The position numbers and the translations under genes were made by a program. Below the pieces are notes generated by a model, which ran no database searches, was not told where the DNA came from, and worked only from the letters and a program-made list of their open reading frames with translations. 64,000 nucleotides of DNA from Patescibacteria group bacterium (GTDB lineage: Bacteria > Patescibacteriota > WWE3 > 0-14-0-20-40-13), in NCBI GenBank assembly GCA_018896215.1, contig JAHINB010000013.1, positions 17,946 through 81,945 on the forward strand, given 5' to 3'. Below, in pieces: positions 8,806 to 61,800 of the stretch (the stretch's first letter is position 1; each line of letters begins with the position of its first letter).

Positions 8806-8810
8806 AATAT

Positions 8811-43167: not shown

Positions 43168-43515
43168 CTATTTTGCTCCCGCTTTAGGTGACGGCTTTGG
43201 CGCAGTTGGAGAAATACCCTCCGGTGCTCTCTTGGCAGAACTTTCTTTTTTAAGACCTTTTCTGCTGTGAGTTCTAAAGGTCCTGGTTAAAGAAAACTCC
43301 CCTAACTTGTGCCCAACCATAGACTCGGTGACAAACACCCCAATAAAGGTTTTTCCGTTATGTACTTCGAAATTTAACCCCACCATCTCGGGACTTATGG
43401 TAGATCTTCTACTCCATGTTTTTATAGCCCCACGATTTAATGTAGCTTTCGCTTTTTTTACTTTTTCTTGCAATTTTGGGTCAATGTAGGGACCCTTTTT
43501 TTGTGATCTGCTCAT
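43168..43515 (-). CDS. rpsS: 30S ribosomal protein S19
   Basis: Start taken at the ATG ([15 protein letters not shown], cf. the canonical S19 N-terminus). The longer TTG-initiated ORF runs into the upstream repeat element. Confidence 0.85.
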
Positions 43516-43604
43516 ATCTATAACAAGATTCAAGAAAACTTCCTATTAATATCCCCGATGGATATCGGGGGCGTTACATATTTCCACGCTTCCCGCGTGG
43601 AAAT
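43516..43604. repeat. E-family structured intercistronic repeat (rplB-rpsS spacer)
   Basis: ATCTATAACAAGATTCAAGAAAACTTCCTATTAATA, then hairpin CCCCGAT-gga-TATCGGGG, then GCGTTACATA, then hairpin TTTCCACGC-ttcc-GCGTGGAAA, then TCTATTTCC. Confidence 0.7.
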
Positions 43605-44426: not shown

Positions 44427-44428
44427 AG

Positions 44429-44758
44429 TTAACTTGTCTTCTTAACCTTCTTAGCCTTTCCTAATTTCTTCTCCACAACTTCAAATAAATCGATTTTCTG
44501 ACCCGTTGCTAATTTAGCGAAGGCTTTTTTATACTCTTTGGTTTTATAAGACATTCTAGCCTTTGTTAAACTTCTTTTTGTTTTGCTCTTTGTTTTTAAA
44601 GTATTCAACCTCGTAACCTTAACCTTAAAGTGCTGCTCTATTTGATCAATAATCGCCCCTTTTGACGCCTCTTTAACAACTGCAAAGGAATAAATGCCTT
44701 TTTTTACCAAGTGGGTAGTTTTTTCTGTGATTATAGGTCTAATTATTATTTGTTGCAT
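44429..44758 (-). CDS. rplW: 50S ribosomal protein L23
   Basis: L23 core, position between rplD and rplB. Confidence 0.8.
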   Translation of the reverse strand: MQQIIIRPIITEKTTHLVKKGIYSFAVVKEASKGAIIDQIEQHFKVKVTRLNTLKTKSKTKRSLTKARMSYKTKEYKKAFAKLATGQKIDLFEVVEKKLGKAKKVKKTS

Positions 44759-45381
44759 AGTTCTGAAATAACCTCTTTTTCTAAAACAGTCAGCGCCACG
44801 GAAGATAACTCAAAAGCGTTAATTGCTCTGGAGTCGCAAACACTAACCTGCGAAAGATTTCTAAACGATCTTAAAACTTTAAATCTTTCGGCAACTTCCT
44901 TTTTGGCAGAAATTACTAAAAGAGCTTTTTTATCTATTTTTAAATTGTTTAAAATACCTATGGCATCTTTTGTTTTTAGCTTGTCCATATCTAATCTATC
45001 CAAAACTAAAATACTTTTAGTCTGCAAGGCGCAAGAAAGGGCTGATACAAGCGCTCCCCTCTTTTGAGCTTTATTTAAAGAGAGTCTTTTTGTGTAAGGA
45101 ACAGGTCCGTGAGATATTCCACCGCCTACCCAAACTGGAGACCTAGATGACCCAGCCCGCGCCCTACCCGTATGTTTTTGGTTCCAAGGCTTTTTTCCGC
45201 CACCAGAGACTTGAGACCTTGTTTTGGTCTTGTGTGTTCCTTGGCTTTGATTAGCTTGATACATTCTAATGTACTGCGCTATTAGATCCAGATTTGGAGT
45301 AACACCAAAAACCTCTTTGGGAAGAGTTATTTTTTCAACTTCTTGGCCTTCTTTATTTAAGACGCTTACCTTTAAACTCAT
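44746..45381 (-). CDS. rplD: 50S ribosomal protein L4
   Basis: L4 core. Confidence 0.85.
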   Translation of the reverse strand: MSLKVSVLNKEGQEVEKITLPKEVFGVTPNLDLIAQYIRMYQANQSQGTHKTKTRSQVSGGGKKPWNQKHTGRARAGSSRSPVWVGGGISHGPVPYTKRLSLNKAQKRGALVSALSCALQTKSILVLDRLDMDKLKTKDAIGILNNLKIDKKALLVISAKKEVAERFKVLRSFRNLSQVSVCDSRAINAFELSSVALTVLEKEVISELCNK

Positions 45382-45809
45382 GTTAGTATTTCAACTTGCA
45401 CCTTTGACCGCCTTGCTCCTGGCACCCCACCTAAAACTTTGATTTCGAGTTTTTCTTTTTCTAGACCAACAATCTTGGATCCCGGTACTGTAATGCTAGC
45501 ATTTCCAAAGTGCCCCGGCATTTTGAGACCTTTAAAAACTCTTCCAGGGGTGGAAGGACCAGTAGAACCAATTGCCCTTTGCCTGTCCGACTGACCATGG
45601 GTAGCAGGACCTCCCTTATGCCCCCACCTCTTCATCACACCAGAAAAACCACGCCCTTTTGAAACTCCTTTTAGCTTTATTTTTTGACCAATGGCAAGCT
45701 CTTTTTCCGGCCAGACAGAAAGTACCACTGTTGTAAAAGGAACGACATCTCCATTTTCTAAATATAATAAACCCATGTCTTTTTTTGTTCCTAAAAGTTT
45801 TGTTTCCAT
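45378..45809 (-). CDS. rplC: 50S ribosomal protein L3 (short form, ~143 aa)
   Basis: The N-terminus aligns with canonical L3 (METKLLGTKKDMGLLY vs MIGLVGKKVGMTRIF). The C-terminal half GFSGVMKRWGHKGGPATHGQS...GGVPGARRSKVQVE is present, but ~60 residues of the canonical internal region are missing. Confidence 0.8.
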   Translation of the reverse strand: METKLLGTKKDMGLLYLENGDVVPFTTVVLSVWPEKELAIGQKIKLKGVSKGRGFSGVMKRWGHKGGPATHGQSDRQRAIGSTGPSTPGRVFKGLKMPGHFGNASITVPGSKIVGLEKEKLEIKVLGGVPGARRSKVQVEILT

Positions 45810-45905
45810 ATCTTATAACAAGATTCAAGAATAATTCCTATTAATTTCCTCGCCCACGGCGAGGGCGTTACATAGTTGCACGAGCTTGCTCGTGGAAATC
45901 TATGT
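45810..45905. repeat. E-family structured intercistronic repeat (rpsJ-rplC spacer)
   Basis: ATCTTATAACAAGATTCAAGAATAATTCCTATTAATTTCC, then hairpin CTCGCC-cacg-GGCGAGG, then GCGTTACATAG, then hairpin CACGAGC-tt-GCTCGTG, then GAAATCTATG. Confidence 0.7.
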
Positions 45906-45924
45906 TTGGTGCAGGGTGGGATAG

Positions 45925-46233
45925 TTAGGCCTTTATTTCTATTCCTACTCCCGAGGGCAAATTTAAATGTGACAACTGATCCATGGTACTTGGAGTTGGA
46001 TTGTCAATATCAATAATTCTTACATGCGTTCTGACTTCAAAGTGCTCGCGAGATCTAGAATCAATATGCGGACCGCGCAGAACCGTAATGACTTCTTTTT
46101 TGCAAGGAAGCGGAACGGGACCCGAGACTCTAGCGCCAGTCCTTATGGCGCAATCTACAATTTTTGCAGCGCTTTGATCAACCACTCTGCTATCATATGA
46201 CTTTAATTTTACCCTAATCCTTCCTTTAGACAT
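45925..46233 (-). CDS. rpsJ: 30S ribosomal protein S10
   Basis: [14 protein letters not shown]. Confidence 0.9.
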
Positions 46234-46328
46234 ACGACATCACAACAAGATTTAAGAAAACATCCAAATAATTTCCCCCGACGAATGTCGGGGGCGTTGC
46301 AAGCTTTTTCGCGTAATCGCGAAAAGGG
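46234..46328. repeat. E-family structured intercistronic repeat (tuf-rpsJ spacer)
   Basis: ACGACATCACAACAAGATTTAAGAAAACATCCAAATAATTTCC, then hairpin CCCGAC-gaat-GTCGGGG, then GCGTTGCAAG, then hairpin TTTTTCGCG-taat-CGCGAAAAG. Confidence 0.7.
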
Positions 46329-47522
46329 TTATTTAATTACCTTCGAGACAACTCCTGCTCCAACCGTTTGACCACCTTCGCGAATAGCAAATCGCATTCC
46401 CTCTTCCATAGCAACTGGAGTAATCAGCTTAATGCTTAATTTTACATCATCACCTGGCATTGCCATCTCTGTCCCTGCGGGCAAATCGGCTTCTCCAGTA
46501 ACATCTGTGGTTCTAATATAGAATTGTGGCTTGTATCCGCTAAAAAACGGGGTGTGTCTGCCACCCTCTTCTTTAGAAAGAACATAGACGCTGGCCTCAA
46601 ACTCGGTGTGAGGGGTAATTGATCCTGGCTTTGCCAAGACCTGACCTCTTTCTACTCCATCTCGCTCAATTCCTCTTAAAAGGATCCCTACATTATCCCC
46701 GGCCTGCCCCTCGGGAAGAGATTTCTTAAACATCTCAATTCCAGTAACAACCGTCTTGGAGGTTGGTTTAATTCCAATTATTTCTACTTCCTCGTTAATT
46801 TTAACAACACCCCTGTCGATTTTTCCTGTAACCACTGTTCCACGACCCTTGATGCTAAACACATCCTCTATCGGCATTAAAAAGGGCTTGTCCAAATCTC
46901 TCTTTGGAGTTGGAATAAACTCATCAACCGCTTTCATTAAGTCTTCGATAGCTTTAATGGACGCGGGATCGCCTTCCAACGCTTTTAGAGCGGAACCTCT
47001 GATAATTGGAGTAGTGTCCCCCGGATACTCAAACTTTTTGAGCATATCTCTAAGCTCCATTTCGACTAAATCGCACATTTCATTCTTTTCGGCGTCGGTT
47101 CCAGGCAGAGCGTCGACTTTATTTAAAAATACGACCAGGGATGGAACATTAACTTGACGCGCTAAAAGAACATGTTCTCTTGTTTGAGGCATAGCTCCAT
47201 CGGTTGCCGCAACAACAAGAATAGCGCCGTCCATTTGGGCAGCTCCGGTAATCATGTTTTTAATGTAATCTCGATGCCCCGGAGCATCTATGTGGGCATA
47301 GTGACGAGCTTCGGTTTCGTACTCAACATGAGTAATGTTGATTGTAATACCACGAGCCTTCTCTTCTGGGGCTTTGTCAATTTGATCGTAAGCATAAAAT
47401 TGAGACAAACCCTTAGAAGCGAGTACCTTAGTAATTGCCGCAGTAAGTGTGGTTTTACCATGGTCTACATGACCTATGGTTCCAATATTTACATGAGGCT
47501 TAGTTCTGATGAATTCTGCCAT
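46329..47522 (-). CDS. tuf: elongation factor Tu
   Basis: [19 protein letters not shown] motifs. 397 aa. Confidence 0.95.
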
Positions 47523-47617
47523 AGAAAAAATCTAAATTTAAAAACTAGTGTGTACGCGCGTCTTGCGAACACTAACCTTTAAATGCTAGATATAAAAACA
47601 AGTAAACTTTTAAAGAA

Positions 47618-49726
47618 TTATACTTTTCTTCCTTCGGCAATTTTTGTTGCCACCGATGCCGGAACCTCCTGATAATGACTGGGCTCAATATTAAAACTTC
47701 CTCTTCCTTGAGTAATGCTTCGCAGGGTTGTGGAATAACCAAACAACTCGGCAAGCGGAACCAACGTTTTTATAATCGCCAAGTTTCCTTTGCTTTCGGT
47801 ACCCTCTATTCTACCACGCTTTGAGCTAATGTCACCTATGACATCTCCCATGAAGTTTTCGGGTACCGAAACCTCTACCTTCATGATAGGCTCTAAAAGT
47901 GCTGGGCTGGCTTTTCTCGCGGCATCTTTAAATGCCTCTATGGCTGCTATTTTAAACGCAATTTCCGAAGAGTCAACCTCGTGAAAAGATCCGTCATATA
48001 ACGCCACCAACACATCAACTACCGGATACCCGGCAACAACGCCACTTTCTAAAGCTTCTTTGACTCCTTTTTCCACCGCTGGAATATACTCTTTGGGAAT
48101 TGAGCCACCTACAATCTCGTTCACAAATTTAAAACCTTCTCCAGCTTCTCGCGGTTCCAAACGCAACCAAACATGACCATATTGACCCCGCCCACCTGAC
48201 TGCCTAATATACTTACCTTCTTGCTCCACAATTTTTTTGATGGTCTCTTTAAAGGCAACTTGCGGAGCACCCGTTTCTGCCCCCACCTTAAATTCTCGCT
48301 TCATCCGATCAACAAGAATTTCCAAATGCAATTCGCCCATTCCAGCAATTAAAGTTTGTCCGGTTTCGGGGTTGGATTTTATTTTAAAAGTTGGATCCTC
48401 TTCGGAGAGTTTTTTTAGAGCCATTCCCATTTTTTCTTGGTCTTGCTTTGTTTTTGGCTCGATAGACATAGAAATAACCGGTTCGGGAAAACTAATTGCC
48501 TCAAGTAAAATTGGATTTTCCTCTGAACACAGCGAATCTCCCGTAAAAGTGTTTTTAAGTCCCACAACCGCGGCAATTTCACCAGCTTTGACCTCTTTGA
48601 CATCTTCACGATCGTTGGCATGCATTAAGACAATTCTACTAAATCGTTCTTTTTCGCCACGGGTGGCGTTTAAAACATACGACCCAGCTGTAAGTTTTCC
48701 CGAGTAAGCTCTAAAATAGGTCAGTCTTCCAACATAAGGGTCGGTTTGAACTTTAAAAGCCAATCCCGAAAAATGCTCCGTAATATCAGGTCTTCTTTCT
48801 TCTTCGGCTCCTGTTTTAGGATTCTTGCCTTTAACGGGAGGAAGTTCTAATGGAGATGGGAGAAGATTAATTACCTGATCTAACAAGCTTTTTACAATTA
48901 CGCCTCGTCCATCTCCTCCAAAAACCGGAAAAACCTCGCCACTTAGAGTAGCTTTTCTAACCGCTCGCATAAGCTCGCTTTCTGATATCTCTTTACCGTT
49001 GAGATACTTATCCATAACTTCGTCATCAAAGTCAGCAACTCTTTCCAACATTTCTCCTCTCCATTTTTTTGCTTCTTCGATTAAATTTGCGGGAATTTCT
49101 TCTTCCACTAAATCTTCTTGCAAATAGTCAGTATAGGTATAAGTCTTCATCCGAATTAAATCGATAACACCATGGAGGTCTTTTTCAAATCCCAGGGGCA
49201 AAACAATAGGAAACGCTTTAGAGCTTAGCCTTTCCCTAATTGATTCCAAACTCCTGTAAAAATCTCCGCCAATTTGGTTAATTTTATTAATAAAACAGAT
49301 TCGGGGAACATGGTATTTGCTGGCTTGTCGCCAAACAGTTTCCGATTGTGGCTCCACTCCCATCTTTCCGTCAAAAACAACTATTGCTCCATCAAGAACC
49401 CTTAGAGAGCGTTCCACCTCGGCGGTAAAATCCACATGCCCTGGAGTATCAATAATGTTGATTCGGTAAACAGCACTTTTTTCTCCAAAATACCTGCGCC
49501 AAAAACAGGTAGTAGCGGCAGAGGTGATAGTGATTCCCCTTTCTCGTTCTTGTTCCATCCAATCCATTTGGGTGTCACCTAAATCGATCTTGCCAATTTT
49601 GTGAGTTTTTCCGGTATGAAACAAAACCGCCTCGGTAGTGGTTGTTTTGCCCGCGTCAATGTGGGCAATTATTCCAATATTTCTAATTCTATCTAGGGGT
49701 ATTTCCCCAAATTCTTTGTCTTGCAT
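47618..49726 (-). CDS. fusA: elongation factor G
   Basis: [21 protein letters not shown] and the EF-G domains IV/V. Start at the ATG for [19 protein letters not shown] (the longer ORF prefix looks non-coding). Confidence 0.95.
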
Positions 49727-50055
49727 GATCTTACAACAAAAAACTCCTATACGGAGTTTCCTCTTTTTAGCAAATTTTGCAACTAATAGCAACGGGTAAT
49801 CACAATCGGTTTGACACCGCACAATTTCCCCTTGACAAGAGTCGTATCTTATAGTAAAAACTGCTCACCTGTCAACTACTTGGAGAGAGCCTGTAAAAAG
49901 GGCTTCCCCTGCGCCTTTTGCGTCTTATCCCTGTCATAAAAATCAGTAAACGAAAAATGAATCGTGTTTCCCTCACTCTGTGGGGGAGATTCAGGCACCT
50001 TAAAAACTGAATAGCGAATTTCATCTTTTATCAAAGAAAGGAAAGGAGGTGTCCC

Positions 50056-50700
50056 TTGTTTGATTTAATAAAGGGAGCACTATGGGCGATGGCAGGAGCT
50101 TTCGGGGACATCTTCCTGCTGGTATTCAATGTCTTGTCCCCATTGTTATTTGACCCGCTAAAAGCGGGAGCGCTGGAGCTCCGTGGCAATGAGTCTGAAA
50201 AAGAGGCTCTAGAAAAGATTGCCACGGCGTTCAAGAGGAACAGGCGCCTTCGCTGGAAAGCTCTGGATCCCGAAAGGGATCCTGCTATGGTTGGTCTGTA
50301 TGTACTGACCAACAATCTCCGTTTCCTCTTTGAGCTCCTAGCAACACAGGTCTTGCTAGAGAGCTCCGCAGGAGGAGAAAGTATAACGCTGATCAAGCAT
50401 GTACGGTTCGGCTGGCTCCTGCGCCTTTTTAGTTTTGAAGGCTACGCGGAGCCAACCCCACTGACTGACATCACTCCCGCGAGAGGTGGCGATGTCACTT
50501 ATCTGCCGTGGAAGATCATCCATGGATCCTCCGGAGAGGTTGTGGAGACCGGTCTTCTCGTAAGGCTGGTCAATTTCCTGACCCAAAAGAGGGTAGTTCA
50601 ATTCTTGACCGCGTCGGGGGAAGCCGACATGTGGCAATTCCCAAACGCGGAGAGATCATGGCGCAAGCTGATGTGGTTGGTCGAAGTCACTACTCAATAA
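50056..50700 (+). CDS. island gene 1: hypothetical protein with N-terminal hydrophobic segment
   Basis: TTG start 6 nt after AAGGAGG. 214 aa. G+C-rich codons. No recognisable motif. Confidence 0.45.
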   Translation: MFDLIKGALWAMAGAFGDIFLLVFNVLSPLLFDPLKAGALELRGNESEKEALEKIATAFKRNRRLRWKALDPERDPAMVGLYVLTNNLRFLFELLATQVLLESSAGGESITLIKHVRFGWLLRLFSFEGYAEPTPLTDITPARGGDVTYLPWKIIHGSSGEVVETGLLVRLVNFLTQKRVVQFLTASGEADMWQFPNAERSWRKLMWLVEVTTQ

Positions 50701-50717
50701 AGGAAAGGAGAAATATC

Positions 50718-50993
50718 GTGTTTAGCAACAGTGTTCTTGCGGTTGCTGGGGTCGGCGCTGTGGCTTTGGCCGTCGCTGCGATCATCATCCTCTGGTCCTC
50801 GAAAGGCGAGGGGATCGGAGGGGTCGCGGGGGCGGTGGTGGCTGCTATGGCGCTGTTGTTGGGGCTTGGGGTTGTGGCGGCGACTGCCTTCGGCATTGCC
50901 TCCCATTCCTCAAGCTATTTCAGTATGTTTGATGGACTGGCGCAGTCATTCGGCCAGTTCGTCAGTAGAGTTGTCCAAATCTTCACCCCCTAA
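50718..50993 (+). CDS. island gene 2: 91-aa Gly/Ala-rich two-TM-helix protein (pilin/VirB2-TrbC-like or holin-like)
   Basis: GTG start 8 nt after AGGAG. Two hydrophobic helices (LAVAGVGAVALAVAAIIIL and VAAMALLLGLGVVAATAFGIA) separated by SSKGEGIGG. Confidence 0.45.
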   Translation: MFSNSVLAVAGVGAVALAVAAIIILWSSKGEGIGGVAGAVVAAMALLLGLGVVAATAFGIASHSSSYFSMFDGLAQSFGQFVSRVVQIFTP

Positions 50994-51003
50994 CGGGGCA
51001 GGA

Positions 51004-52044
51004 GGGAACGAGATGAAAATGAAACGGTTTCTGAAAACCGTCGCTCCCCTCGCTTCCCTCCTGCTTCTGGCGGGATGTACAGGAGGTGAGGGGGACGGTG
51101 TAGGAAAGATGGTCGCAGGAGTGATAGGGGAGCTTAAGGGGATCAGTGATCTGATTAAGTTCGGGATCATCGGTCCTCGAGTTGAGTTACCCCTTTCAGT
51201 TTGGGCAGGGATTGGCGGTCTCGCCTCCCTACTCATCTTAATCGGTTTCATTTTCACCGCGTGGATGTCCGCAAGGGCCTACGCGCGGCGCCAGCCTGTA
51301 GAGGACTGGGGAATCGGTTGGTTTCTGCTTCTGATGATGACCGGAATCTGGATTTTCTTATCCGGTTATCTGTTATCGGGGGCGTACCTAGAGTTCCCTG
51401 ATCTTGGGTTGGCGGATTTCGTTGTGAGGGGGATGGGGCTGATGGATCTTGCCGGGGGAGTATTGCTTCTCATGGCGGGTTTGGTCCTATTTTCCCTACG
51501 GATGATCATGTGGTCAATGTTGCTCGTGGCCGCCCTGTTTGTTCCAATCATTGCGGTAATCGCGCAATGGACAAACAGGCGTGGATTGATTGCGTACGCT
51601 TCAGTGCTGTTTTCTTACATCGTGTACGCGATGTACCCGTTCATCCTGGCGTTCGTCCTCAACACAGATCTTGGTCTACCCACCATTCCCCTGTTGGGAG
51701 GAGGCGGACTGATAAAAGCGGCAGTTCTAGTAATTACTGCCGGAGCGCTTCTCTTCTTCTTCCTGTTTGGTCCTTTGCTTCTGCGAAAAGTGTTCACGGC
51801 GATCGCGCCGAAAGAAACCGTTCTGCAAAGGGAGCCAAACAGGCTAGAGCCGGAGGAGATCGTTGCTTTGGTAATGTCCGCCCTTGCCCTCTTAACCGGG
51901 GGCGGACTGGAAGCGGCTCTAGCGCACATCTTCGGGCCTCTCTCCAAGAGGCTTGGAGTTGATGTTGGTGGAGTTGTCGATGGAGTGAAAAACGCCACCC
52001 GCAGTGGCAACACCGCAGCGGCAAATCCAGAACCCCCGGCGTAG
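51004..52044 (+). CDS. island gene 3: polytopic membrane lipoprotein (VirB6/TrbL-like topology)
   Basis: GGAGG RBS. Signal peptide with lipobox LLLAGC. About seven further hydrophobic helices and a hydrophilic C-terminal tail. Confidence 0.5.
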   Translation, partial: GNEMKMKRFLKTVAPLASLLLLAGCTGGEGDGVGKMVAGVIGELKGISDLIKFGIIGPRVELPLSVWAGIGGLASLLILIGFIFTAWMSARAYARRQPVEDWGIGWFLLLMMTGIWIFLSGYLLSGAYLEFPDLGLADFVVRGMGLMDLAGGVLLLMAGLVLFSLRMIMWSMLLVAALFVPIIAVIAQWTNRRGLIAYASVLFSYIVYAMYPFILAFVLNTDLGLPTIPLLGGGGLIKAAVLVITAGALLFFFLFGPLLLRKVFTAIAPKETVLQREPNRLEPEEIVALVMSALALLTGGGLEAALAHIFGPLSKRLGVDVGGVVDGVKNATRSGNTAAANPEPPA

Positions 52045-52063
52045 CGCGGGGAGGGAGGAAACC

Positions 52064-54010
52064 ATGTTGAGTATTTTGGCTCGAGTAGGAGAGCCCTTAG
52101 GGGATCTGATGTATACAATCCTCCTGTGGGCTTTGGATACGCGGTGGAGCCGCAAGCTCCGCCCGTATCTGCTGGTCTTTCTCTTCCTCCCCGCGTCTCT
52201 TTTTCTCTCTCAACTGCTTCACCCAGCGGGACCCGTCGTGGTTCTGGGCGGTTTGGGAGCGATTTTCGCGATTGGTATCGCCTACAAGTCTTGGGCGATG
52301 CTTCCGCGGAGATTTGGGAGAGAAAAGAGAAAGAGGGGTTGGATTGAGGAAGTCGTTGGAGAGGCAATGAGACTCTTGGGATTTGCCTCTCCGTTGGAAT
52401 CGCTGTTTTCGGTCAACGGATATCCAGTGTGGGAGATTACCTATCCGCCCGAGCAACCGGGGGAAACAATCCTCGGAAACTCCGGTAGAGTCCGGTTGAT
52501 TTCCACACCTGTAGGGTTGGAAGTTCCGGGGTTCCTCGCGGCAACGCGGGCGGACTCGAAAGATCCACCATTCGTGGCGGAAGCTCTAAAGAGTATCGGA
52601 GATTTCGCCCTTCCTGGGAGTGGATCCCTATGGCCTCGTCGGCTAGTCCGCCAAATCTTGCTCACGGCAGATATGCCATCAGAGCAAGCGCCGGATGTGC
52701 CTCTTGGTAGATTGCTGGAGCCGAGGGCTGTTCGTCTTAAGACGGAAGCGCTTTTAGCAAGTTCCGGAGCGACCGAAAGTACCCCAAGGGTTGAGGAGGT
52801 TTTGACCTACGGGGGAACCGCGGTTGCTAAGTTTGGCAAAGCGGGAACGCGGAAGTGCGCTTTCGTGGAGCTTAGACCTCGCTGTTTGGGTTTCGGCAAG
52901 AACCTTCCGCTTTCGGAGGCGCTAAATCGGCTTCTGTCTAAAGGCTATCCTATTTCCTTTGAAGCCGAAAGGATCGCCTCCGGCACCGTCTTTGGACGGC
53001 TGACGGCAATGGTTCTTCTCAAGAACGGCCGAGGGTCGTTGAAGCGGGCGTTGGGCGAGTTCCGCTCTGCAGGATTCGAAATCCCGTTGCTGGGGAGCTC
53101 CAAGACTGGAGCGTCCGGACTCTTCCGTCGCTTCCTTCCGGAAACGGAAATTGAAGCTAGCGGAGGATTCTCTTTGACGGCAGAAGAGTTTTGCCTAGTC
53201 TCCGATGCCCTTTGTTCTAGTGTCGGTTCGGCATCACGCGATCCCGACGAGGCACTGTTCGTCGGGTTGCGGGGCAGAACCCCGTGTTTTCTCGAACCCC
53301 GACCCCACGAACTCCGCACCGGGGTCCAGGGATCGGGCAAGACCACTGGCGTGAACTCGAGTCTCCTCCAAAGAACTGGTGGGAGATTTGTGGGAATCAT
53401 CAGTGGCACTGATCCCAAGGCAAGCACTCTGGCAATGGTGTGTGATGCGGGGGGTAAGGTTGTTGATGTTTGTGGAAACGACAGTGAAAAAACTGGACGG
53501 GCATGTGTGGCGGAAGCAATCGGGTTCCTTCAACAGGGAAAACCGTTCACCATCCGCCCTATCGGTGTGGAGTTCACACCACAACTCGTCCAGTTCGCAA
53601 TCGGCTTCGTTGACGAGTTCACCAAGGAGGTTCCCAAGGCCGACTGGTCCGCGGTTCTTCCTGCAGGTCGGCATCTGGGACTTTTGGTGGATGACCTCTT
53701 CCGTCTCCTCGCCGCTAGGGCAACCTATAGCATGGAGGCAGAGGTTGACAGACTTCTCGCTATCTTAGAAACAGCAATGTCGGAGCTGTGGAAGCCAATT
53801 CCCGGTGGGTACCCAGGATGCATTGTCGCAGTGACGACACAGGCTCCAGGAGATCCACCTCAAACGATGTATGACAAGTTTGGTATCGTTATACATCATC
53901 AAGGTCCGAAATCCGCCGTGATTTCTAGGTATTTGGATTGGGAACCAACATCAATCAACACCTGGATCTCCAACAAGGATCTGCACAACCTCGTTTCGGC
54001 TCGGCGGTAA
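52064..54010 (+). CDS. island gene 4: membrane-anchored ASCE P-loop ATPase (FtsK/TraB/VirD4/VirB4-like)
   Basis: GGAGGGAGG RBS. Two or three N-terminal TM helices. Walker A GVQGSGKTTGV (aa ~419-429) and Walker B AIGFVDEF (~aa 512-519) about 95 aa apart. About 130 aa follow the Walker B. Confidence 0.55.
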   Translation: MLSILARVGEPLGDLMYTILLWALDTRWSRKLRPYLLVFLFLPASLFLSQLLHPAGPVVVLGGLGAIFAIGIAYKSWAMLPRRFGREKRKRGWIEEVVGEAMRLLGFASPLESLFSVNGYPVWEITYPPEQPGETILGNSGRVRLISTPVGLEVPGFLAATRADSKDPPFVAEALKSIGDFALPGSGSLWPRRLVRQILLTADMPSEQAPDVPLGRLLEPRAVRLKTEALLASSGATESTPRVEEVLTYGGTAVAKFGKAGTRKCAFVELRPRCLGFGKNLPLSEALNRLLSKGYPISFEAERIASGTVFGRLTAMVLLKNGRGSLKRALGEFRSAGFEIPLLGSSKTGASGLFRRFLPETEIEASGGFSLTAEEFCLVSDALCSSVGSASRDPDEALFVGLRGRTPCFLEPRPHELRTGVQGSGKTTGVNSSLLQRTGGRFVGIISGTDPKASTLAMVCDAGGKVVDVCGNDSEKTGRACVAEAIGFLQQGKPFTIRPIGVEFTPQLVQFAIGFVDEFTKEVPKADWSAVLPAGRHLGLLVDDLFRLLAARATYSMEAEVDRLLAILETAMSELWKPIPGGYPGCIVAVTTQAPGDPPQTMYDKFGIVIHHQGPKSAVISRYLDWEPTSINTWISNKDLHNLVSARR

Positions 54011-54045
54011 TCGGTCCATCAAGCAAACCCCCAAAGGAGGGCGGA

Positions 54046-55395
54046 ATGGACGACTGGGAAGAGATCTTAAGCCTTAAGTGGCTCCTGTCCACCGCCCTCC
54101 AATCATTTGCTATCGTTGCGACAGTTTGCGCGATGGCATTGGTTGCGGGGGCGGTTTTAGTTTTCGCCTTCCTATTTGACAAAACTGGGGGGGCGATTTG
54201 GGATGTACTGCTAAAGGAAGCGGGAATTTTTGTCCCGCGTGTTGTCTGCACGGAAGTAGAAACGCTGACGGCAGTGGGAGAATCCTCATATGAATTTCAA
54301 CAGAACTACGATGGTGGTAGTGAGGATAGCGCATGGGCGCTTCTTCCCGCTGGAGTTCAACGCTGGCGCGGTCTTCTGGAAGAAACGGCTCTGCGCCACG
54401 GCTTTGACCCTCTGATGTTCGGGGTCATTGCCACAATTGAGAATCCTGCCGGTAACCCCACCGCGGGATCCTGGGCGGGCGCCCAAGGGTTGGTTCAAGT
54501 GATGCCGTTCAACTTTACGGCTAACGAAACCGACCACTTTGATCCCGCGACAAATCTGGAGGCGGGAGCGAGAGTCTTTGCTTCCTGTCTCCGTCTGGCG
54601 GGGGGAGATTTCCGCTTGGCGGGCGCCTGTTACAATGCAGGACCCCGCATCCTGCGGATGAACCTTGCCAACTGGTTTGCCGAAACTCTGTTATATTATC
54701 GCCGCTCGGCGATATATGACGAGATTCGGCAAGGTAGGACTAACACGCTAGATTCATGGCTGGGAGGTCATGGGGGCGCTGTCATGGCGTCAGGAGCGGA
54801 AGCTCCGAGCGCGACAGGCGCTACTACCCAAACCTCCCAAGTATGCAAAATTTGTCTTGTTCCCAACCCCAATGACGGACTGCTGGGGTTTTTGGGAACA
54901 GCGTTGGAGCTTCTGGGGTTGGGACCTTCCAGTCCCTGCTCCGAAGTCTCGGCTTCAACATATCAATCCTCTGCCACAGTGGTGGCGGGGGGGAATGGCA
55001 GTTGGCGCTATCCGGTGGAGGGCGCCACGGTATCGGACGGTCCGTGGCACAAAATCCCAGCGCTGGATTTTATGGTCTCGCTGGGAACACCGGTGGTGAG
55101 CGCCCACACGGTTCCAGCAACCGTGGAATACTCTGGATGCAACAATGCCGGAGGATACGGATGCTGGGTTCTGCTGATGCACGACGACGGTAAGTCAACC
55201 GTCTATGTGCATTTGGACGAGAGTCTTCCTGTCAAGACCGGCGATCGGGTGGATGCGTCCACTTTGCTTGGCCGGGTCGGTTTGACGGGAAAAACCTCTG
55301 GACCCCACCTGCACTTCGAGGTGCGGGAAGGGTTGTATAACCATATAGATCCCGCAGAAGTGTTCGGGGAGATTGGAAAAGGAGGTCTAAAATGA
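54046..55395 (+). CDS. island gene 5: membrane-anchored bifunctional peptidoglycan hydrolase, SLT lytic transglycosylase + M23 peptidase
   Basis: AAAGGAGG RBS. N-terminal TM helix. SLT motifs ATIENPAGN, GAQGLVQVMP, ACYNAGP. M23 motifs H..D (HKIPALD) and TGKTSGPHLHFEVREG. Confidence 0.65.
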   Translation: MDDWEEILSLKWLLSTALQSFAIVATVCAMALVAGAVLVFAFLFDKTGGAIWDVLLKEAGIFVPRVVCTEVETLTAVGESSYEFQQNYDGGSEDSAWALLPAGVQRWRGLLEETALRHGFDPLMFGVIATIENPAGNPTAGSWAGAQGLVQVMPFNFTANETDHFDPATNLEAGARVFASCLRLAGGDFRLAGACYNAGPRILRMNLANWFAETLLYYRRSAIYDEIRQGRTNTLDSWLGGHGGAVMASGAEAPSATGATTQTSQVCKICLVPNPNDGLLGFLGTALELLGLGPSSPCSEVSASTYQSSATVVAGGNGSWRYPVEGATVSDGPWHKIPALDFMVSLGTPVVSAHTVPATVEYSGCNNAGGYGCWVLLMHDDGKSTVYVHLDESLPVKTGDRVDASTLLGRVGLTGKTSGPHLHFEVREGLYNHIDPAEVFGEIGKGGLK

Positions 55396-56609
55396 TGGTA
55401 GAGAAAGGTCAAAATCCTCCTCTTGAAGAGGATGAGAAGGAGGAGCAGACTGGGTCGCGCAAGCGAGGGATTATTGGGTGTCTTGTTGCTCTAGGCATCC
55501 TTATCCTACTCTTCGCCTGCGTAGCGGGGGTGATCGTTGCCGTGGGGAGGCGAGCTGTGGATGAGATAAAGCCTCAACCCACACCCGCACCTACCCCTCA
55601 ACCCCTCCTTGTCTTTGGGCAATGCGAGGGGAACAGCCCCCGATGCGCCCAAGGCGGAAGCGGGGTATTCTTCCCGGGAAACCCCAAAAGGGTCAACTCC
55701 TGGGACGCGCCCCTCCAGTTCTGGGCCGAAACATCGGCTCCAAACGGCGGGACACAACAACGTCCAGTGGGAAAGCTTGTCAAAAATACGGAAGTATATG
55801 AGACAGGGGATCCTGTGAACGGGATGCAACCGGTTGAATGGGTAGTCAAGATTCCCGAGGGGCTGATGGCAAAGCCCCAAAGAGATTGGGAAGTCCGCTA
55901 TGAGGAAGTGGCAGATTTTCCCACAGAGGATCAGCTCGACGAGGTTAGGGATTGGTTGCTTGAGGGAATCAGTTCCTACGAAGTTTTGGACAAATCCCTG
56001 ATCGACCCACCCTACAAGTACGGTTCAGAGGGAGATGTGATGGCGGTTGGAAGTTGGAAGTCCAGCCGAAATTGGTGGCTCGTCTCCTTCCGGGGCTGGG
56101 TGGCGGTTGGTTTGGGAGCAGTGATCGTACCAACCCCCGAACCTACCCCAACGACAGTCCCGGTTCCAACGGAATTGACTCCGGCACCTACTCAAGCCCC
56201 TGACTGCCCGGTCTGTACTGGAGGAGCGCGAAGGGATCCGACAAATCCTTGCGGGCAGGTGTGTGACAACACCTACTACCCACCCGCCCCAGCGCCAACG
56301 ACAAGTGTCTGCACCCCGGGACACTTGGAGTGGATCAAGAGCCTTGACGAGGTCTGGATTTATGAGACCTCAACGGGGCAAAAACTTTGGAGTTTGTCGG
56401 AGTTTCGGATTCAGATGTTCAGCGTCGGTCTCATCTCGGAGGATGAGACCCTTACCCCCGTCCCCACAGGCTCGAAAGAGGCTCTGCGGATAGACAAGGG
56501 TGGATTGCCCGTGGACAGGACGAACGGATATATCGAAATATCCGGATCGGTTCTATCACGGAGAACGAATGAAAGACGAACCTGGTGCCATGAGGGATAC
56601 TGGAAGTGA
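55392..56609 (+). CDS. island gene 6: membrane-anchored Pro/Thr-linker, Cys-rich surface protein
   Basis: ATGA overlap with gene 5. TM helix at aa ~25-50. Linkers PQPTPAPTPQP and PTPEPTPTTVPVPTELTPAPTQAP. Cys cluster CPVCTGG...CGQVCDN...CTPGH. Confidence 0.5.
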   Translation: MMVEKGQNPPLEEDEKEEQTGSRKRGIIGCLVALGILILLFACVAGVIVAVGRRAVDEIKPQPTPAPTPQPLLVFGQCEGNSPRCAQGGSGVFFPGNPKRVNSWDAPLQFWAETSAPNGGTQQRPVGKLVKNTEVYETGDPVNGMQPVEWVVKIPEGLMAKPQRDWEVRYEEVADFPTEDQLDEVRDWLLEGISSYEVLDKSLIDPPYKYGSEGDVMAVGSWKSSRNWWLVSFRGWVAVGLGAVIVPTPEPTPTTVPVPTELTPAPTQAPDCPVCTGGARRDPTNPCGQVCDNTYYPPAPAPTTSVCTPGHLEWIKSLDEVWIYETSTGQKLWSLSEFRIQMFSVGLISEDETLTPVPTGSKEALRIDKGGLPVDRTNGYIEISGSVLSRRTNERRTWCHEGYWK

Positions 56610-56636
56610 CCTTCCAACTTCCCATGGCGCCACTGG

Positions 56637-56688
56637 AAGCGGAGGAAATCTTGGGCTAGCACAGCCAAGGTCTTCTCCGCTTTTTTTA
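56637..56688 (+). terminator. intrinsic terminator candidate at the island 3' end
   Basis: AAGCGGAG ... CTCCGCTT stem enclosing an internal hairpin, followed by TTTTTTT. Confidence 0.45.
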
Positions 56689-56697
56689 TAACAAAAT

Positions 56698-57540
56698 TTA
56701 ATAAATCCCAAGTTCTATTGCAGTTTTAATTTGGGGAATGTCGGTGGGGATTTTAATGTGAGAAAGACTATTACCTTTAAAGCTTTGGATAATTTTTACC
56801 CCGGCGCAATCAATTGCCACCCTTCCAGTTGATGCCAAAAGCAAATTTGGTTCCCTTATTTCCCCCTCTGTAGGTCCTCGGGTGATAAAACATTTTCGAG
56901 CGTCCATAATTACCAAGTCTGGCTTGATAACAGTATTGATTAAAGCGACTTTTTCTTGCAAGTTTTTAAGATGCATTCTAATGCGCTCTATTGGTTTAAC
57001 AAAACCAACTGTTAGCTTTAACGCCCCAGTGTACTGCGCCTGTTTGTGAGTTTTTAAACAGGGAACATAAATTATCTTATCGGCTTTAGTTACAATTTCT
57101 GGAATAGAAACGCTTTTTAGAATTGGGGAGGAGATTGCGGATTTAACCCATCTCCCTTCCTCAAAAACATACATTCTTGGAGGAGTATCCGAATTTAATA
57201 ACTCGAATACCCCCTTCTTTTCCATAATCTTTCGCGTGTTTAAAGTAACTGTAGAGGAATCGCCAATGGCAACAAGTTTTGCCCCATGCTGATACAATAG
57301 TTCGGTAAGACATTTTAAAAATTCCACATCGGAGGAGGCGGGAAAGGGGTCAGCGGTATTAAAATTGGGTTTAACAAAGACTACATCTCCTGTGCTGATA
57401 AATCTCTTAAACCCACCAAGCTCTTCAACCAAGTTGTGGATGGATTCTTTTAAATTAGCTTTGGGAGTGATTTTTACAACTTTTATCAACAGACAATCAA
57501 TGAATCGGTCTAACCTGCATGACACTCGCGGAAACAGCAT
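56698..57540 (-). CDS. DUF362-family protein
   Basis: DVVFVKPNFNTADPFP ... TVGFVKP pattern of DUF362. Low-GC host-like composition. The exact start is uncertain (non-ATG start in the ORF track). Confidence 0.45.
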   Translation of the reverse strand: MLFPRVSCRLDRFIDCLLIKVVKITPKANLKESIHNLVEELGGFKRFISTGDVVFVKPNFNTADPFPASSDVEFLKCLTELLYQHGAKLVAIGDSSTVTLNTRKIMEKKGVFELLNSDTPPRMYVFEEGRWVKSAISSPILKSVSIPEIVTKADKIIYVPCLKTHKQAQYTGALKLTVGFVKPIERIRMHLKNLQEKVALINTVIKPDLVIMDARKCFITRGPTEGEIREPNLLLASTGRVAIDCAGVKIIQSFKGNSLSHIKIPTDIPQIKTAIELGIY

Positions 57541-57745
57541 CCTGCGTACTTAACCATTGGGATTTAATACCAACTACCCAAGCTAAAAGGGCAAAAAACA
57601 AAAAAAGCAAGCTTGTGACCAGAATTAATGGCACTAACTTACGACTGTTAAACGGCACCATACTTTTAGCCTCGCGACTTGCAACAGCACGCCTTTTTAC
57701 CGTTGCCCGTTTGGTTTTTTTAGTTTTCATATATTTTGGGGGCAA
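57497..57745 (-). CDS. hypothetical small basic membrane protein
   Basis: 82 aa with a K/R-rich N-terminus then one TM helix. It overlaps the DUF362 ORF 5' end, so one of the two starts is likely shorter. Confidence 0.25.
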   Translation of the reverse strand: MPPKYMKTKKTKRATVKRRAVASREAKSMVPFNSRKLVPLILVTSLLFLFFALLAWVVGIKSQWLSTQDAVSASVMQVRPIH

Positions 57746-57953: not shown

Positions 57954-58421
57954 TTACCATTTAAAATGTGCAAAGGCTTTGTTGGCTTCTGCCATTCTGA
58001 TAGTATCTTCTTTCTTTTTAAAGGCGGCGCCTTCTTTTTTAAAAGCCAACTGAATTTCATCGAGCAATCTTTGAGCCATAGGCTTGCCTTTTTTATTACG
58101 AGAAATCTCCACCAACCATCTAATTGCCAACGCCTCGGATCTGTCGTGGCGCAAAGGAGCTGGAACCTGATAAGTTGCTCCTCCAACCCTACGACTTCTG
58201 ACTTCTTGAGCAGGCATTAAATTTTTGATCGCCTCTTCAAATTTTGCCAGCGCCTCCTTTTTGTCTTCAGACAAGCCTGCGATTGCGATGTAAGCAATTT
58301 CTTGGGCAAGGCTTTTTTTACCCCCTAACATCATCCGAGTGATAAGTCTTGTGACTACCTTGGATTTATAAACGGTGTCTGTTTCTAAAATCTTTTTTAT
58401 TGGTTTAGACGATCTTGACAT
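57954..58421 (-). CDS. rpsG: 30S ribosomal protein S7
   Basis: MSRSSKPIKKILETDTVYKSKVVTRLI. Confidence 0.9.
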   Translation of the reverse strand: MSRSSKPIKKILETDTVYKSKVVTRLITRMMLGGKKSLAQEIAYIAIAGLSEDKKEALAKFEEAIKNLMPAQEVRSRRVGGATYQVPAPLRHDRSEALAIRWLVEISRNKKGKPMAQRLLDEIQLAFKKEGAAFKKKEDTIRMAEANKAFAHFKW

Positions 58422-58423
58422 GA

Positions 58424-58849
58424 TTAAACTTTCTTAACTCCCGCATCTTTTTTGGTTCCGTAATGACTTCGAGAAGTCTTGCGACCAGAAACTCCTGCTA
58501 AATCAAATTTGCCTCTAACAATTGTGTACTTTACACCCGGCAAATCCTTAACCCTACCACCACGAACCAATACTACGGAATGTTCTTGAAGCGCGTGACC
58601 TTCCCCCGGAATGTAGGCAGTTACCTCCTCACCATTAGATAAACGCACTCTGGCAACTTTGCGCAGTGCCGAGTTCGGTTTTTTAGGAGTCATTGTCTTA
58701 ACAATAAGACATACCCCTCGTTTAAAGGGACTGGCTATTTTTTTCTTTTTGCGATGCAAAGATGAATAAATAACCTTCAACGCTGGTGTTGCCTTTCGAA
58801 CCTTAATGTTTTTTCTTCTTTTTTTGACTAACTGGTTTATTGTCGGCAT
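58424..58849 (-). CDS. rpsL: 30S ribosomal protein S12
   Basis: [13 protein letters not shown] ... [28 protein letters not shown]. Confidence 0.9.
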
Positions 58850-58868
58850 AATCGTATATTATAACTCA

Positions 58869-61800
58869 TTATTCCAGTCGTGCACGCTCTCCCACTGGAA
58901 TTAATCTACCGATTATTACATTTTCTTTGAGACCGAGCAACTTATCAACCGCGCCAACCGAAGCGGCATCGGTTAGTACTCTACTAGTGTTCATAAAGCT
59001 CGCAGCCGCCAAAAAGCTATCGGTCTCCAGTGACGATCTTGTAATACCAAGCAATATTAAATGCCCCTCTGCCATTTCCCCACCCTCTGCTGCAACTTTA
59101 GAATTTTCTTCTTCAAACCTATCTTTGGTAATAACTTCACCCTGCAAAAAAATTGTGTCGCCAACTTTATCCACCTCTACCTTATTAAACATCTGCCTTA
59201 CAATTACCTCTAAATGCTTATCGTTTAGCTTAACACCTTGCGATGTATAAACTTTTTGCAAGTCTTTTACAATATAATTTTGCGTTTGCATTACCCCAAC
59301 AGCGTTTAGAAGCTCCCCCAAATCTAAACTCCCTAGTGTTAAGGGCTGTCCTGCCGTGACTAAATCGCCTTTTGCCACAATAATTTCCGAAACGGGATCT
59401 ACATTGTAGCAAACTTCGGAAATATCAACATTCTTTGTCGTCACCTTTACTGTAAGAGTCCTTTTTCCATTCTTATCCTCCTCTAGCGATACCCGACCAG
59501 AAATTTCGCTCATGATAGAAAGTGATTTGGGCAAACGAGCCTCTAAAATTTCTTCTACTCGGGGAAGCCCTTGTGTAATATCCTTTCCTGCAACACCACC
59601 TGTATGGAATGTTCTCATAGTAAGCTGGGTTCCCGGCTCGCCAATAGACTGCGCCGCCAAAATTCCAACAGGAACGCCTATCTTTACCACCGCCAAATTA
59701 GTTAAATCCTCTCCATAGCACTTTTGACAAATCCCATGACTGTACTCACAAGTTAAGGGAGAGTAAATTCTAATGTTGTCAATCTCCAGCAAATCTATTT
59801 GCTTGGCGATACTTGCCGTTATAAGCTCTCCTTTTTTAATGAGCGTTTTTCCTTTATGCTTAACAGTCTTGGCAACAAACCGACCCTTTAATTTATCTGC
59901 CATGGAGGCGAGTGGCACGCAATCGGCTCGCGAAATTTCTCTGTACTTTTCGGTTCCGCAAAATTCGGTTCTTATAATTACATCTTGCGCCACATCGACA
60001 AGTCGGCGAGTAAGATACCCCGCATCGGCGGTCCTTAATGATTTATCGGTAATTCCCTTGCGAGAACCTCGGGATCCCGCAAAATATTCAAACCCCGAAA
60101 GACCTTCTTTGTAATTTCCTTTAATTGGCATTTCAATAATTCGTCCCGTAGGATCAGCGATAAGCCCTCTCATTCCAGCAATCTGTCTAATTTGCACTCG
60201 TGAGGCTTTTCCAGCACCGCCCGATTTAAGCATATATTTAACCACATTCTTATCGTCCAACATTTTCCAGGTAGCATCGTCAATTTTTTCGGTAGTCTCT
60301 TGCCAAAGAGCTTGTAGCAAACTCTTTTGTTCTTGTCTTGTAATAAGACCTCTTTTGTAGTTCAAGTCAATTTCCTCCGCTTTCTTATTAGCAACATTAA
60401 GCATTAAATCCTTATCTGGAGAGGCTTTAAAATCAAACAGCGAAACTGACAAACCCGACTTTGTAGCGTATTCGTATCCTAAATTCTTGACCGCATCAAT
60501 AAATTCCACAGTAATCCTAGAATCTTCAGATTTTAATACTTTATCAAATAAGTCGCTTAGCGAAAGCGTGTCTTCCGAGGCGCTTTTTCCAACGCTACTA
60601 TTAATATATCCCAAAGATTGAGGAATCTGCTCGTTAAAAATTACCCTTCCCGCAGTGGTTTCTAGAGTCTTCCCATTTATGTAAACATTTATGAGTTGTT
60701 TAAGAGTTATTTTTTTATTATCCAAAGCCAGCAACACCTCATCTACACTCCCGAATGTTCCAGAGTGTTTTTTAGCCTCGGTATCTATTGTTGTTAGGTA
60801 ATAGACACCTAAAATCATATCTTTTGCTGGCATGGCAATAAATTGACCATTAGAAGGTTTGAGCAAGTTTTTATCTGCCAACATTAAATCTTTTGCCTCA
60901 TCAATAGCTTCTTTAGATAACGGCAAATGCACAGCCATCTGATCCCCGTCAAAATCGGCATTGTAACCATCACAAACGCAAGGGTGAATTTGAATCGCGT
61001 TGCCATCAATTAGCTTGGGATAAAAGGCTTGAATTCCCAATCGATGCAGTGTTGGAGCGCGATTTAAAAGTACGGGTCTTGTTTTGGCAAGGGACTCTAC
61101 AATATCCCAAACCTCGCCACCTCTTTCTTCTAAAATATATTTGGCGCTCTTTACATTGGGAGCAAGCCCGCGAAGCAAAATTTCGCGAAGAACTAAAGGC
61201 TTTAAAAGCTCAATTGCCATTTCTCTTGGAATACCGCATTCGGTTAGGGCAAGTTCGGGACCCACAACTATAACCGATCTTCCCGAATAATCTACCCTCT
61301 TTCCCAGTAAATTCTGCCTAAATCTTCCCTGCTTTCCCTTTAACATATCAGAGATTGAACGCAAGGGTTTTCGGGTAGTCCTTAGAACCCTAGATGTGGA
61401 TCTTTGCTTGGAAGAATCAATCAAAGCGTCCACCGCCTCTTGCAACATTCTTTTCTCGTTGCGGACTATAATTTCTGGCGCCCCCAAATTTAGTAACCTT
61501 TTCAGTCTACTATTACGGTTGATAATTCTTCGATAAAGATCATTGAGATCGCTTGTGGCGAACCTACCACCCTCCAGCTGAACCATAGGACGCAAATCTG
61601 GGGGGATAACAGGTAAATGTTGTAACACAACCCAAGTTGGGCTAATACCAGCGTGTCTAAAACCCTCCAACACCTTTAATCTTTTGGTGAGTTTAAGTTG
61701 CGCTTGACCCTTTGTCCGTGTAATTTTGGCTTTAAGCTTTTTAATATCCTCCACCAAATCTATTGCATCCAAAATATTTTTTATTGCTTCGGCCCCAATT

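Follow-up and report, generated by a model that had tools for sequence, protein, structure and literature searches.

Among the systems described so far, those to which the locus reported here is most readily compared are the type IV secretion systems (T4SSs) of monoderm bacteria and the archaeal machines derived from such systems. The locus is a block of six genes, labelled g1 to g6 in plus-strand order, inside the ribosomal str operon of a Patescibacteria group bacterium (contig JAHINB010000013.1 of GCA_018896215.1); we analysed it within a 64-kb stretch of that contig, referred to as the window, whose coordinates are used throughout. In pCF10, prgH encodes a polytopic protein, prgI a small transmembrane (TM) protein, prgJ the VirB4 ATPase, prgK a TM-anchored multi-domain hydrolase and prgL a bitopic protein, and Tn916 carries a small TM protein (orf17), VirB4 (orf16), a polytopic protein (orf15) and a hydrolase annotated as lysozyme/C40 (orf14), together with orf13. 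A comparable set is ConD-E-G-CwlT of ICEBs1, where CwlT pairs a glycan-cleaving domain with NlpC/P60. To our knowledge, a VirB4 ATPase that can be recognised by profile is the signature of a T4SS, and VirB4 is the sole T4SS protein that is ubiquitous.

Patescibacteria have a T4SS clade of their own, which is defined by VirB4, related to MPF-FATA and widespread, with 2,474 virB4 genes in the dataset of Quinonero-Coronel et al. (2025, PMC12102498). M23 or LysM domains are found in its VirB1 homologues, most of its clusters come without a relaxase, VirB3-VirB4 fusions, which are known from some conjugative systems, were not found in that dataset, and the clade is thought to have been repurposed for an epibiotic lifestyle (PMC12102498). 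In archaea, the Ced system combines CedA, with 6-7 TM segments, and CedA1 and CedA2, with two each, with the VirB4/HerA-like CedB; Ced and Ted have no recognisable sequence similarity to each other, and both have been shown, on the strength of HHpred and cryo-EM, to derive from T4SSs (PMC9905601).

Like pCF10, Tn916 and ICEBs1, the island studied here brings together in one tight operon the same five kinds of parts: a small protein with two TM segments and a polytopic one, a P-loop ATPase and a two-domain hydrolase that are both anchored by TM segments, and a surface protein that is bitopic. The first-pass annotation of this DNA had taken the operon for a T4SS-like envelope machine. Its parts list does parallel that of a monoderm T4SS, while homology to T4SS, FtsK or VirD4 families was not demonstrated, so that the T4SS-like reading, as we see it, rests on architecture (the parallels with pCF10/Tn916 and archaeal Ced) and not on homology. 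The reading we favour, tentatively and with a confidence that falls a little short of even, is that this is a horizontally acquired and maintained operon that may build an ATP-powered complex across the cytoplasmic membrane and the wall, laid out like a minimal monoderm T4SS or Ced/Ted core and either too diverged from these or too independently evolved to be placed among them.

The island is a 6.8-kb block of six plus-strand open reading frames (ORFs) at ~50.0-56.7 kb, set within a minus-strand ribosomal region that reads, on that strand, rpoC, rpsL, rpsG, gap, fusA, tuf, rpsJ and then further ribosomal-protein genes. As had been noted at first pass, rpsG (57954-58421) and the start of fusA (49726) are 8.2 kb apart. 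The G+C content of the block is 0.50-0.58 (500-nt windows, 50000-56749), against 0.33-0.46 across the remainder of the window, and the GC skew flips sign across it. An earlier estimate by eye of 55-65% was thus right about the contrast and too high about its magnitude. By codon position, G+C is 0.60/0.47/0.58 in the island genes and 0.48/0.36/0.35 in 63 host ORFs; since the third position (GC3) rises from 0.35 to 0.58, the shift in composition is synonymous as well as driven by amino-acid content, and the island differs from its flanks by both measures.

Translation signals set the island apart in the same way. All six genes are preceded by a Shine-Dalgarno (SD) site with a core of GGAG or longer (AGGAGG/GGAGG-type) at proper spacing, whereas such a site was found in just 9 of the 63 host ORFs, counting a 4-nt core before any in-frame start within the first 40 codons, and is missing from tuf, rpsL, rpsG, rpsJ, rpoC and secA. 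This bears out the claim that strong SD sites mark the island and are mostly absent from the host. The gene starts proposed alongside it were right at 50056, 50718, 52064, 54046 and 55392; position 51004 falls on a GGG codon, and the real start of g3 is the ATG at 51013, which gene callers pick likewise.

An abrupt GC step at both ends, together with strand and SD use unlike those of the host, is also what an assembly or binning chimera would produce, in which a higher-GC fragment had been joined to a Parcubacteria contig. We give this explanation next to no credence, since both junctions recur in independent data. The window matches contig JAKLRK010000007.1 of GCA_022012835.1, a Candidatus Parcubacteria metagenome-assembled genome (MAG). 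In the Logan assembly of SRR35107410, made independently, the left junction lies on contig_83, which runs from ribosomal-protein genes through tuf and fusA into g1-g5 at 99.99% identity, and the right junction on contig_20, which carries g5-g6, DUF362, rpsG, rpsL and rpoC. ENA and JGI contigs carry the same genes, as do further NCBI assemblies, whose protein records fall under five locus-tag prefixes; all are annotated as "hypothetical". A sister genome, GCA_043827225.1 (L011), has a divergent allele of the island at the same site. With independent assemblies spanning both junctions, a chimeric contig is effectively refuted.

The sister genome also separates the history of the island from that of its flanks. 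Between it and the window, nucleotide identity is 99.0% for rpsJ, 99.9% for tuf and 98.5% for fusA, with synonymous divergence (dS) of 0.04, 0.004 and 0.06, respectively; for g1-g4 it is 82-87%, with dS of 0.40-0.74, that is, ~6- to 200-fold above the adjacent tuf and fusA. The spacer between fusA and g1 is still ~96% identical up to the SD site of g1, apart from two indels. This contrast in divergence implies that the cassette has gone its own way relative to its flanks, by exchange or by the retention of old alleles. For the four island genes in which it could be tested, g1-g4, the ratio of nonsynonymous to synonymous divergence (dN/dS) is 0.11-0.14 (g1 0.135, g2 0.13, g3 0.11), a range indicative of purifying selection on the island genes. 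A third allele of g3, from another assembly (P0129), is a mosaic whose N- and C-terminal segments match the sister allele and whose centre matches that of the window, which implies recombination within the island.

Along the contig, the sister genome is 99.9% identical to the window over 42205-45817, and the rest of its contig forms a single BLAST block of 92.6% (45901-52833); gene by gene, the drop to 82-87% starts only at g1. The sharp step in identity points to tracts of recombination or to a mixture of strains in the MAG. On the other side of the island, the Logan contig SRR10598175_16969 (L037), compared with 57955-59059, is 100% identical through rpsL and rpsG and diverges right after the rpsG stop, where it carries a different small TM-protein gene in place of the 82-aa ORF and the DUF362 gene that lie there in the window; the gap between rpsG and fusA is therefore a strain-variable hotspot. 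A lookup of identical EF-G and S7 proteins returned no clean empty rpsG-fusA site, just variant sequence past rpsG.

A homologous module, colinear with the island, is present in one Saccharibacteria MAG (GCA_964638225.1, locus L010), with its genes in the same order. Five of the six proteins have significant BLASTP matches there (g1 1e-17, g3 5e-10, g4 9e-28, g5 4e-49, g6 8e-17). In the coordinates of that locus, the counterparts lie at 3020-3652 (g1), 3655-3957 (g2), 4110-5585 (g3), 8087-9448 (g5) and 9463-10743 (g6); the one at the position of g2 is a 100-aa protein with two TM helices whose similarity to g2 is not significant. The Saccharibacteria module is likewise a G+C island (0.45-0.52 vs 0.33-0.38; GC3 0.45 vs 0.32) with strong SD sites, a GGAGG-type site being found in one of eight neighbouring host genes, and its neighbours differ from those in the window, being a cold-shock gene and a gene for a PilB-type ATPase. 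The module is thus conserved as a unit, with a gene order common to two candidate phyla.

Beyond this locus, relatives proved very scarce. An exhaustive HMMER search with g4 against 1.84 billion representatives returned two relatives only, an 85%-identical fragment from the sister genome and the Saccharibacteria protein (28% identical, E 4e-21), and a word-indexed search of 5.8 billion proteins with g3 and g4 gave self hits only. A scan of GTDB genomes turned up the Saccharibacteria locus again and nothing else, with search patterns that the near-identical fragment had biased, and a scan of JGI metagenomes with a profile of the g5 N-terminus retrieved only generic SLT proteins in housekeeping contexts (trmD/ychF neighbours, high-GC contigs). 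An M23-only relative (P0005) was considered as a member of the module and rejected, as its genomic context is not that of the module.

Foreign composition, the hotspot site, a patchy presence in two candidate phyla and the lack of relatives in housekeeping contexts would also suit a module left over from, or carried as cargo by, a mobile element or a non-tailed, membrane-containing virus and since fixed in the chromosome, in which case g4 would be a packaging ATPase or translocase, g2 and g3 proteins of the internal membrane, g5 an entry or lysis enzyme and g6 a spike. FtsK-HerA-type ATPases do package DNA in membrane-containing viruses, and in PHROGs g5 matches tail lysins, endolysins and tape-measure proteins. 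We regard such an origin as improbable: genes for a capsid, for replication, for an integrase or for a terminase are missing, as are attachment (att) repeats; four protein scans of IMG/VR found no relative of the module, nor did searches of INPHARED phages and PLSDB plasmids (tblastn for plasmids, blastn for plasmids and phages), and a fold search of BFVD gave generic P-loop matches only. The occupation of the same chromosomal site in several assemblies, by two divergent alleles and a mosaic, and the signs of purifying selection speak against it as well. At the island itself, domain scans and repeat searches came back empty for the hallmarks of mobility, namely a flanking att-like repeat, an adjacent tRNA, an integrase domain and a relaxase domain; for relaxase, integrase and att repeat, this agrees with what had been seen at first pass.

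Taken together, the foreign GC, GC3 and SD use, the high dS relative to tuf and fusA, the mosaic allele and the colinear island in another phylum make horizontal acquisition of the island well supported. Where it came from is a different matter. The actinobacterial donor once proposed is not supported by the sequence comparisons: in our searches g4 and g3 have no relatives outside Patescibacteria, and the nearest relatives of the hydrolase domains are Chloroflexota-like. It is an evolutionary puzzle that two copies with ATPases only 28% identical should each stand ~12-15 GC points above their host and carry strong SD sites, in hosts that are AT-rich and poor in such sites; no relative of g4 or g3 that would point to a higher-GC reservoir was found outside Patescibacteria.

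In the ATPase, g4 (52064-54010, plus; 648 aa), a two-TM hairpin at ~34-77 is followed by a basic patch and then by ~300 residues of middle domain, and the C-terminal part is a P-loop domain of the RecA-like type. The protein contains a Walker A motif (GVQGSGKT, 420-427), a Walker B motif (LLVDD, 540-544) and a downstream motif, VTTQxPxD (590-597), all of which are invariant between the window and the Saccharibacteria protein (as G..G.GKT, LVDDL and VTTQ.P.D). The spacing is 117 residues from K426 to D543 and 48 from D543 to T591, compared with 124 and 39 in E. coli FtsK, and only ~230 residues follow Walker A. An AlphaFold2 model of the C-terminal domain, with a predicted local distance difference test score (pLDDT) of 55, 60-88 in the core, and a predicted TM-score of 0.60, has a RecA-like fold that HerA, VirB4, TrwB and Rad51 match about equally well. 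The full-length model (pLDDT 42) was set aside as too poor; its Foldseek matches in the PDB were F1/V1 ATPases and DMC1, all with E > 1e-3. Sequence searches of the PDB with g4 and with a g4 profile returned noise only. We thus regard g4, on the basis of its motifs and predicted fold, as a membrane-anchored RecA-like ATPase that is compatible with the FtsK-HerA-VirB4 assemblage and not assignable to it. Of the original description as a membrane-anchored Walker A/B ATPase of FtsK/VirD4/VirB4 type, the anchor and the conserved motifs stand, and the family assignment is not borne out, for want of any profile match and of any alignment beyond the P-loop.

The hydrolase, g5 (54046-55395, plus; 449 aa), is by its Pfam matches the sole island protein that falls into known families; g1-g4, g6 and their Saccharibacteria homologues had no match in Pfam, NCBIfam, PHROGs or PADLOC. 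Its description as a bifunctional peptidoglycan hydrolase is confirmed by Pfam matches to SLT (2e-11; ~113-207) and Peptidase_M23 (2e-19; ~339-429), which follow an N-terminal hydrophobic anchor that the Saccharibacteria homologue also has. Glu132, invariant in the alignment of these two sequences, presumably occupies the usual position of the catalytic Glu of SLT-family enzymes; the M23 domain has HLH at 421-423 and a first motif, HKIPALD, of non-canonical spacing. In the Saccharibacteria protein, the TM anchor, the SLT domain and the post-SLT region are retained (36% identity over the first 300 aa) and NlpC/P60 (C40) replaces M23, which yields the same kind of pairing as in Orf14 of Tn916. 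Both enzymes thus join SLT to a second peptidase domain, as VirB1-type wall hydrolases do.

The closest relatives of g5 are SLT+M23 hydrolases encoded in flagellar operons of Limnocylindria/Chloroflexota, which share its two domains and belong, as g5 may, to a wall-spanning machine. Only the M23 domain is similar (39-49% identical), and these hydrolases lack the N-terminal and post-SLT regions that g5 has in common with its Saccharibacteria homologue. On three Limnocylindria/Chloroflexota-like contigs (L003, L007, L009) the SLT+M23 gene sits between fliJ and a rod-protein gene, in an operon of the form fliI-fliJ-X-flgB-like; by analogy, this hydrolase may replace the usual FlgJ-type rod-cap hydrolase there.

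The surface protein, g6 (55392-56609, plus; 405 aa), overlaps g5 by an ATGA (55392-55395). It was described from the outset as a Cys-rich surface protein with Pro/Thr linkers, and this holds: by sequence and hydropathy, the protein has a charged N-terminus, a TM segment at ~27-51, the Pro/Thr linkers, an ectodomain that is conserved, a Cys-rich module and a C-terminal domain that varies. Homology to the Saccharibacteria protein covers residues 28-241; the C-terminus of that protein is a LysM domain. No family matches g6, and a PDB search with its profile gave only noise.

The polytopic protein is g3 (51013-52044, plus; 343 aa), with ~6-8 TM segments by hydropathy, close to what had been reported, and with the reported lipobox (LLLAGC), which is conserved in the Saccharibacteria homologue as FATGC. 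By analogy it is a candidate channel subunit, though without a Pfam hit. The Saccharibacteria homologue has, in addition, a long acidic repeat tail (5299-5926 of that locus; YTEEDLSDEDISS...) that is not in the Parcubacteria protein; its repeats of 55-121 nt are broken by an assembly N-run. The small two-TM protein is g2 (50718-50993, plus; 91 aa), which is Gly/Ala-rich, has two hydrophobic helices by hydropathy and matches neither VirB2 nor VirB3 nor PrgI; an hhalign comparison of g2 with the N-terminus of g3, aimed at an internal homology of the VirB2/VirB6 type, was negative. The first gene, g1 (50056-50700, plus; 214 aa), starts with the TTG at 50056 or, alternatively, the ATG at 50089, and has no family match in Pfam, NCBIfam or PHROGs and no PDB match with its profile. 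Every product had been said to begin with a hydrophobic segment; such a stretch is present in all six, but that of g1 is absent from its homologue, and because it is not conserved g1 is probably cytoplasmic.

On the reading we favour, g4 would be held in the membrane by its own two-TM hairpin, in the role of VirB3 plus VirB4, and would power a channel formed by the polytopic lipoprotein g3 and the small g2. The hydrolase g5, anchored alongside, would open the wall locally, its SLT domain cutting glycan strands and its M23 domain (NlpC/P60 in the relative) the cross-links between peptides, g6 would cross the wall on its Pro/Thr linkers and contact the wall or a partner through its variable outer domain (LysM in the relative), and g1 would act as a cytoplasmic accessory protein. 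Complex formation and channel action are what we infer from this layout, as are the nature and direction of the cargo; the use we favour is exchange with a partner or host cell, of DNA or protein. Classical self-transfer is unlikely, because there is neither a relaxase nor a coupling protein. In the Saccharibacteria module the hairpin of the ATPase is a separate ORF of 85 aa, whose TAG stop directly precedes the ATPase ATG; a small VirB3/PrgI-like tether, sometimes fused to its ATPase, behaves analogously, but there is no sequence similarity to PrgI or Orf17. The swap of the second hydrolase domain and the fused or split state of the ATPase anchor look, from the sequences, like the modular evolution typical of such machines.

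Several results weigh against this reading. No VirB4-type ATPase that a profile would recognise, the defining feature of a T4SS, was found in the island: g4 matches no Pfam (including PF01580, FtsK_SpoIIIE), NCBIfam or PHROG model even at E 0.1, and in hhalign comparisons with PrgJ, Orf16 and Orf21 of Tn916, PcfC and FtsK it aligns at most over the P-loop (best P 8.5e-4 over 26 columns; the FtsK alignment is 26 columns around the P-loop). Nor was homology to VirB4, VirB6, VirB3 or VirB8 detected anywhere in the island, and hhalign found no similarity of g2, g3 and g6 to PrgI, PrgH, PrgL, Orf13, Orf15 and Orf17, which for g3 includes both PrgH and Orf15 of Tn916. Unlike in pCF10 and Tn916, the gene for the polytopic protein precedes that for the ATPase. 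A coupling protein (VirD4/TcpA) or a relaxase was found neither in the island nor in the ten other window ORFs scanned, and the island holds neither a cargo gene nor a clt-like repeat.

This failure of all secretion-system profiles, with only g5 in known families, is the natural starting point for a different explanation, namely a new envelope or wall machine unrelated to T4SSs, which would insert or assemble a surface structure (g6, possibly g2) or remodel peptidoglycan for attachment to a partner, without translocating a nucleic acid or an effector. The nearest SLT+M23 relatives, whose genes lie between fliJ and one for a rod protein, serve the flagellum; g6 varies in its outer part, which in the homologue carries the peptidoglycan-binding LysM; and fast allelic turnover suits a surface or interaction locus. 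We nonetheless consider such a machine unlikely, if worth serious thought: a polytopic and a small two-TM protein beside an ATPase that is RecA-like and TM-anchored are a recurrent signature of translocation, in T4SSs as in Ced/Ted, and no wall-remodelling system of the FtsEX-EnvC type is known to use such an ATPase.

The island resembles the Patescibacteria T4SS clade in host group, chromosomal location, lack of a relaxase and possession of M23/LysM domains, and differs from it in that g4 matches no VirB4-type model (Pfam, NCBIfam, PHROGs), in that relatives are limited to a few close Parcubacteria assemblies and one Saccharibacteria MAG, and in that the module lies in a G+C island. The described architecture of Ced and Ted is similar, with a multi-TM channel protein, small two-TM proteins and a membrane-bound ATPase encoded on the chromosome without a relaxase; unlike the island, these systems are archaeal and come without a peptidoglycan hydrolase. 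An actinomycete-type system of the FtsK/SpoIIIE-TraB kind known from Streptomyces is not in evidence, as the island has no match to the FtsK_SpoIIIE motor domain, no clt-like 8-mer repeats (no 8-10-mer is enriched in it) and no evident DNA-binding gamma or winged helix-turn-helix domain. There is a real, if lesser, chance that the island stands apart from the monoderm envelope translocation machines. In a bolder form, for which we would also claim only a minority likelihood, it would represent an unrecognised envelope translocation system specific to candidate phyla, with an ATPase lineage of its own, arisen by independent invention or as a T4SS/Ced-like derivative too far diverged to be recognised, that travels as one self-contained cassette between Parcubacteria and Saccharibacteria and owes its lasting polymorphism to a role in partner-specific cell-cell exchange.

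At the 3' end of the unit, the proposed hairpin and T7 tract are indeed found: an intrinsic terminator (56635-56687, plus), with an RNAfold hairpin at 56635-56684 (-26.9 kcal/mol) running into T7 at 56681-56687, closes it; the DUF362 gene beyond is convergent, with its 3' end towards the terminator. That gene (56698-57540, minus; Pfam DUF362 3e-40) and an 82-aa TM ORF (57497-57745, minus) make up the rest of the rpsG-fusA gap, and both have a host-like GC of 0.38-0.41 and lie outside the G+C island. At the 5' end, the spacer between fusA and g1 (49727-50055), which serves as the leader of the island on the plus strand, ends in the SD site of g1 (AGGAGG). No convincing plus-strand sigma-70 promoter was found in it, and an Rfam scan of leader and island gave no match. 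Within this spacer, 26 nt (49868-49893) are missing from the sister genome GCA_043827225.1; they include the -35 box of the sole sigma-70-like site directed at fusA (49875 to 49846), for which reason the promoter of fusA, now separated from rpsG, is uncertain.

Elsewhere in the window, the gene for ribosomal protein L3 (rplC, 45378-45809, minus) encodes 143 aa only and has no counterpart among the genes that NCBI calls on the same contig; bacterial L3 usually has ~200 aa. The most AT-rich stretch (17700-21400, GC 0.345-0.36) contains a Fic/DOC+HTH gene (17783-18766) and a gene for an AAA_14/DUF4143 ATPase (19653-20855), adjoins a tRNA-Glu (21241-21315) and may be a second, AT-rich accessory region. 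The window ends within rpoB; just upstream of this gene, the Logan contig SRR35107410_20 (L036) carries at 1-2434 Bro-N and RhuM-family genes of the sort typically found on mobile elements.

Within the limits of our literature search, we found no description of the cassette as such, of its occurrence in two candidate phyla, of its character as an island or of its T4SS/Ced-like architecture, and the genes are public only as hypothetical proteins. Patescibacteria cells depend on other microbes, their exchange of material with partners is largely unknown, and their canonical T4SS is suspected to have been repurposed. If our reading is correct, Patescibacteria would have in this module a second machine of the same logic as that T4SS, one that is much rarer and evolves fast, is portable as one cassette, is detectable only by its architecture and is lodged in a strain-variable hotspot within the ribosomal str operon. 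Surveys of secretion systems that rely on profiles would miss machines of this kind, and the module, with its six or seven genes, would offer a small and defined set in which a role in contact-dependent transfer could be sought.

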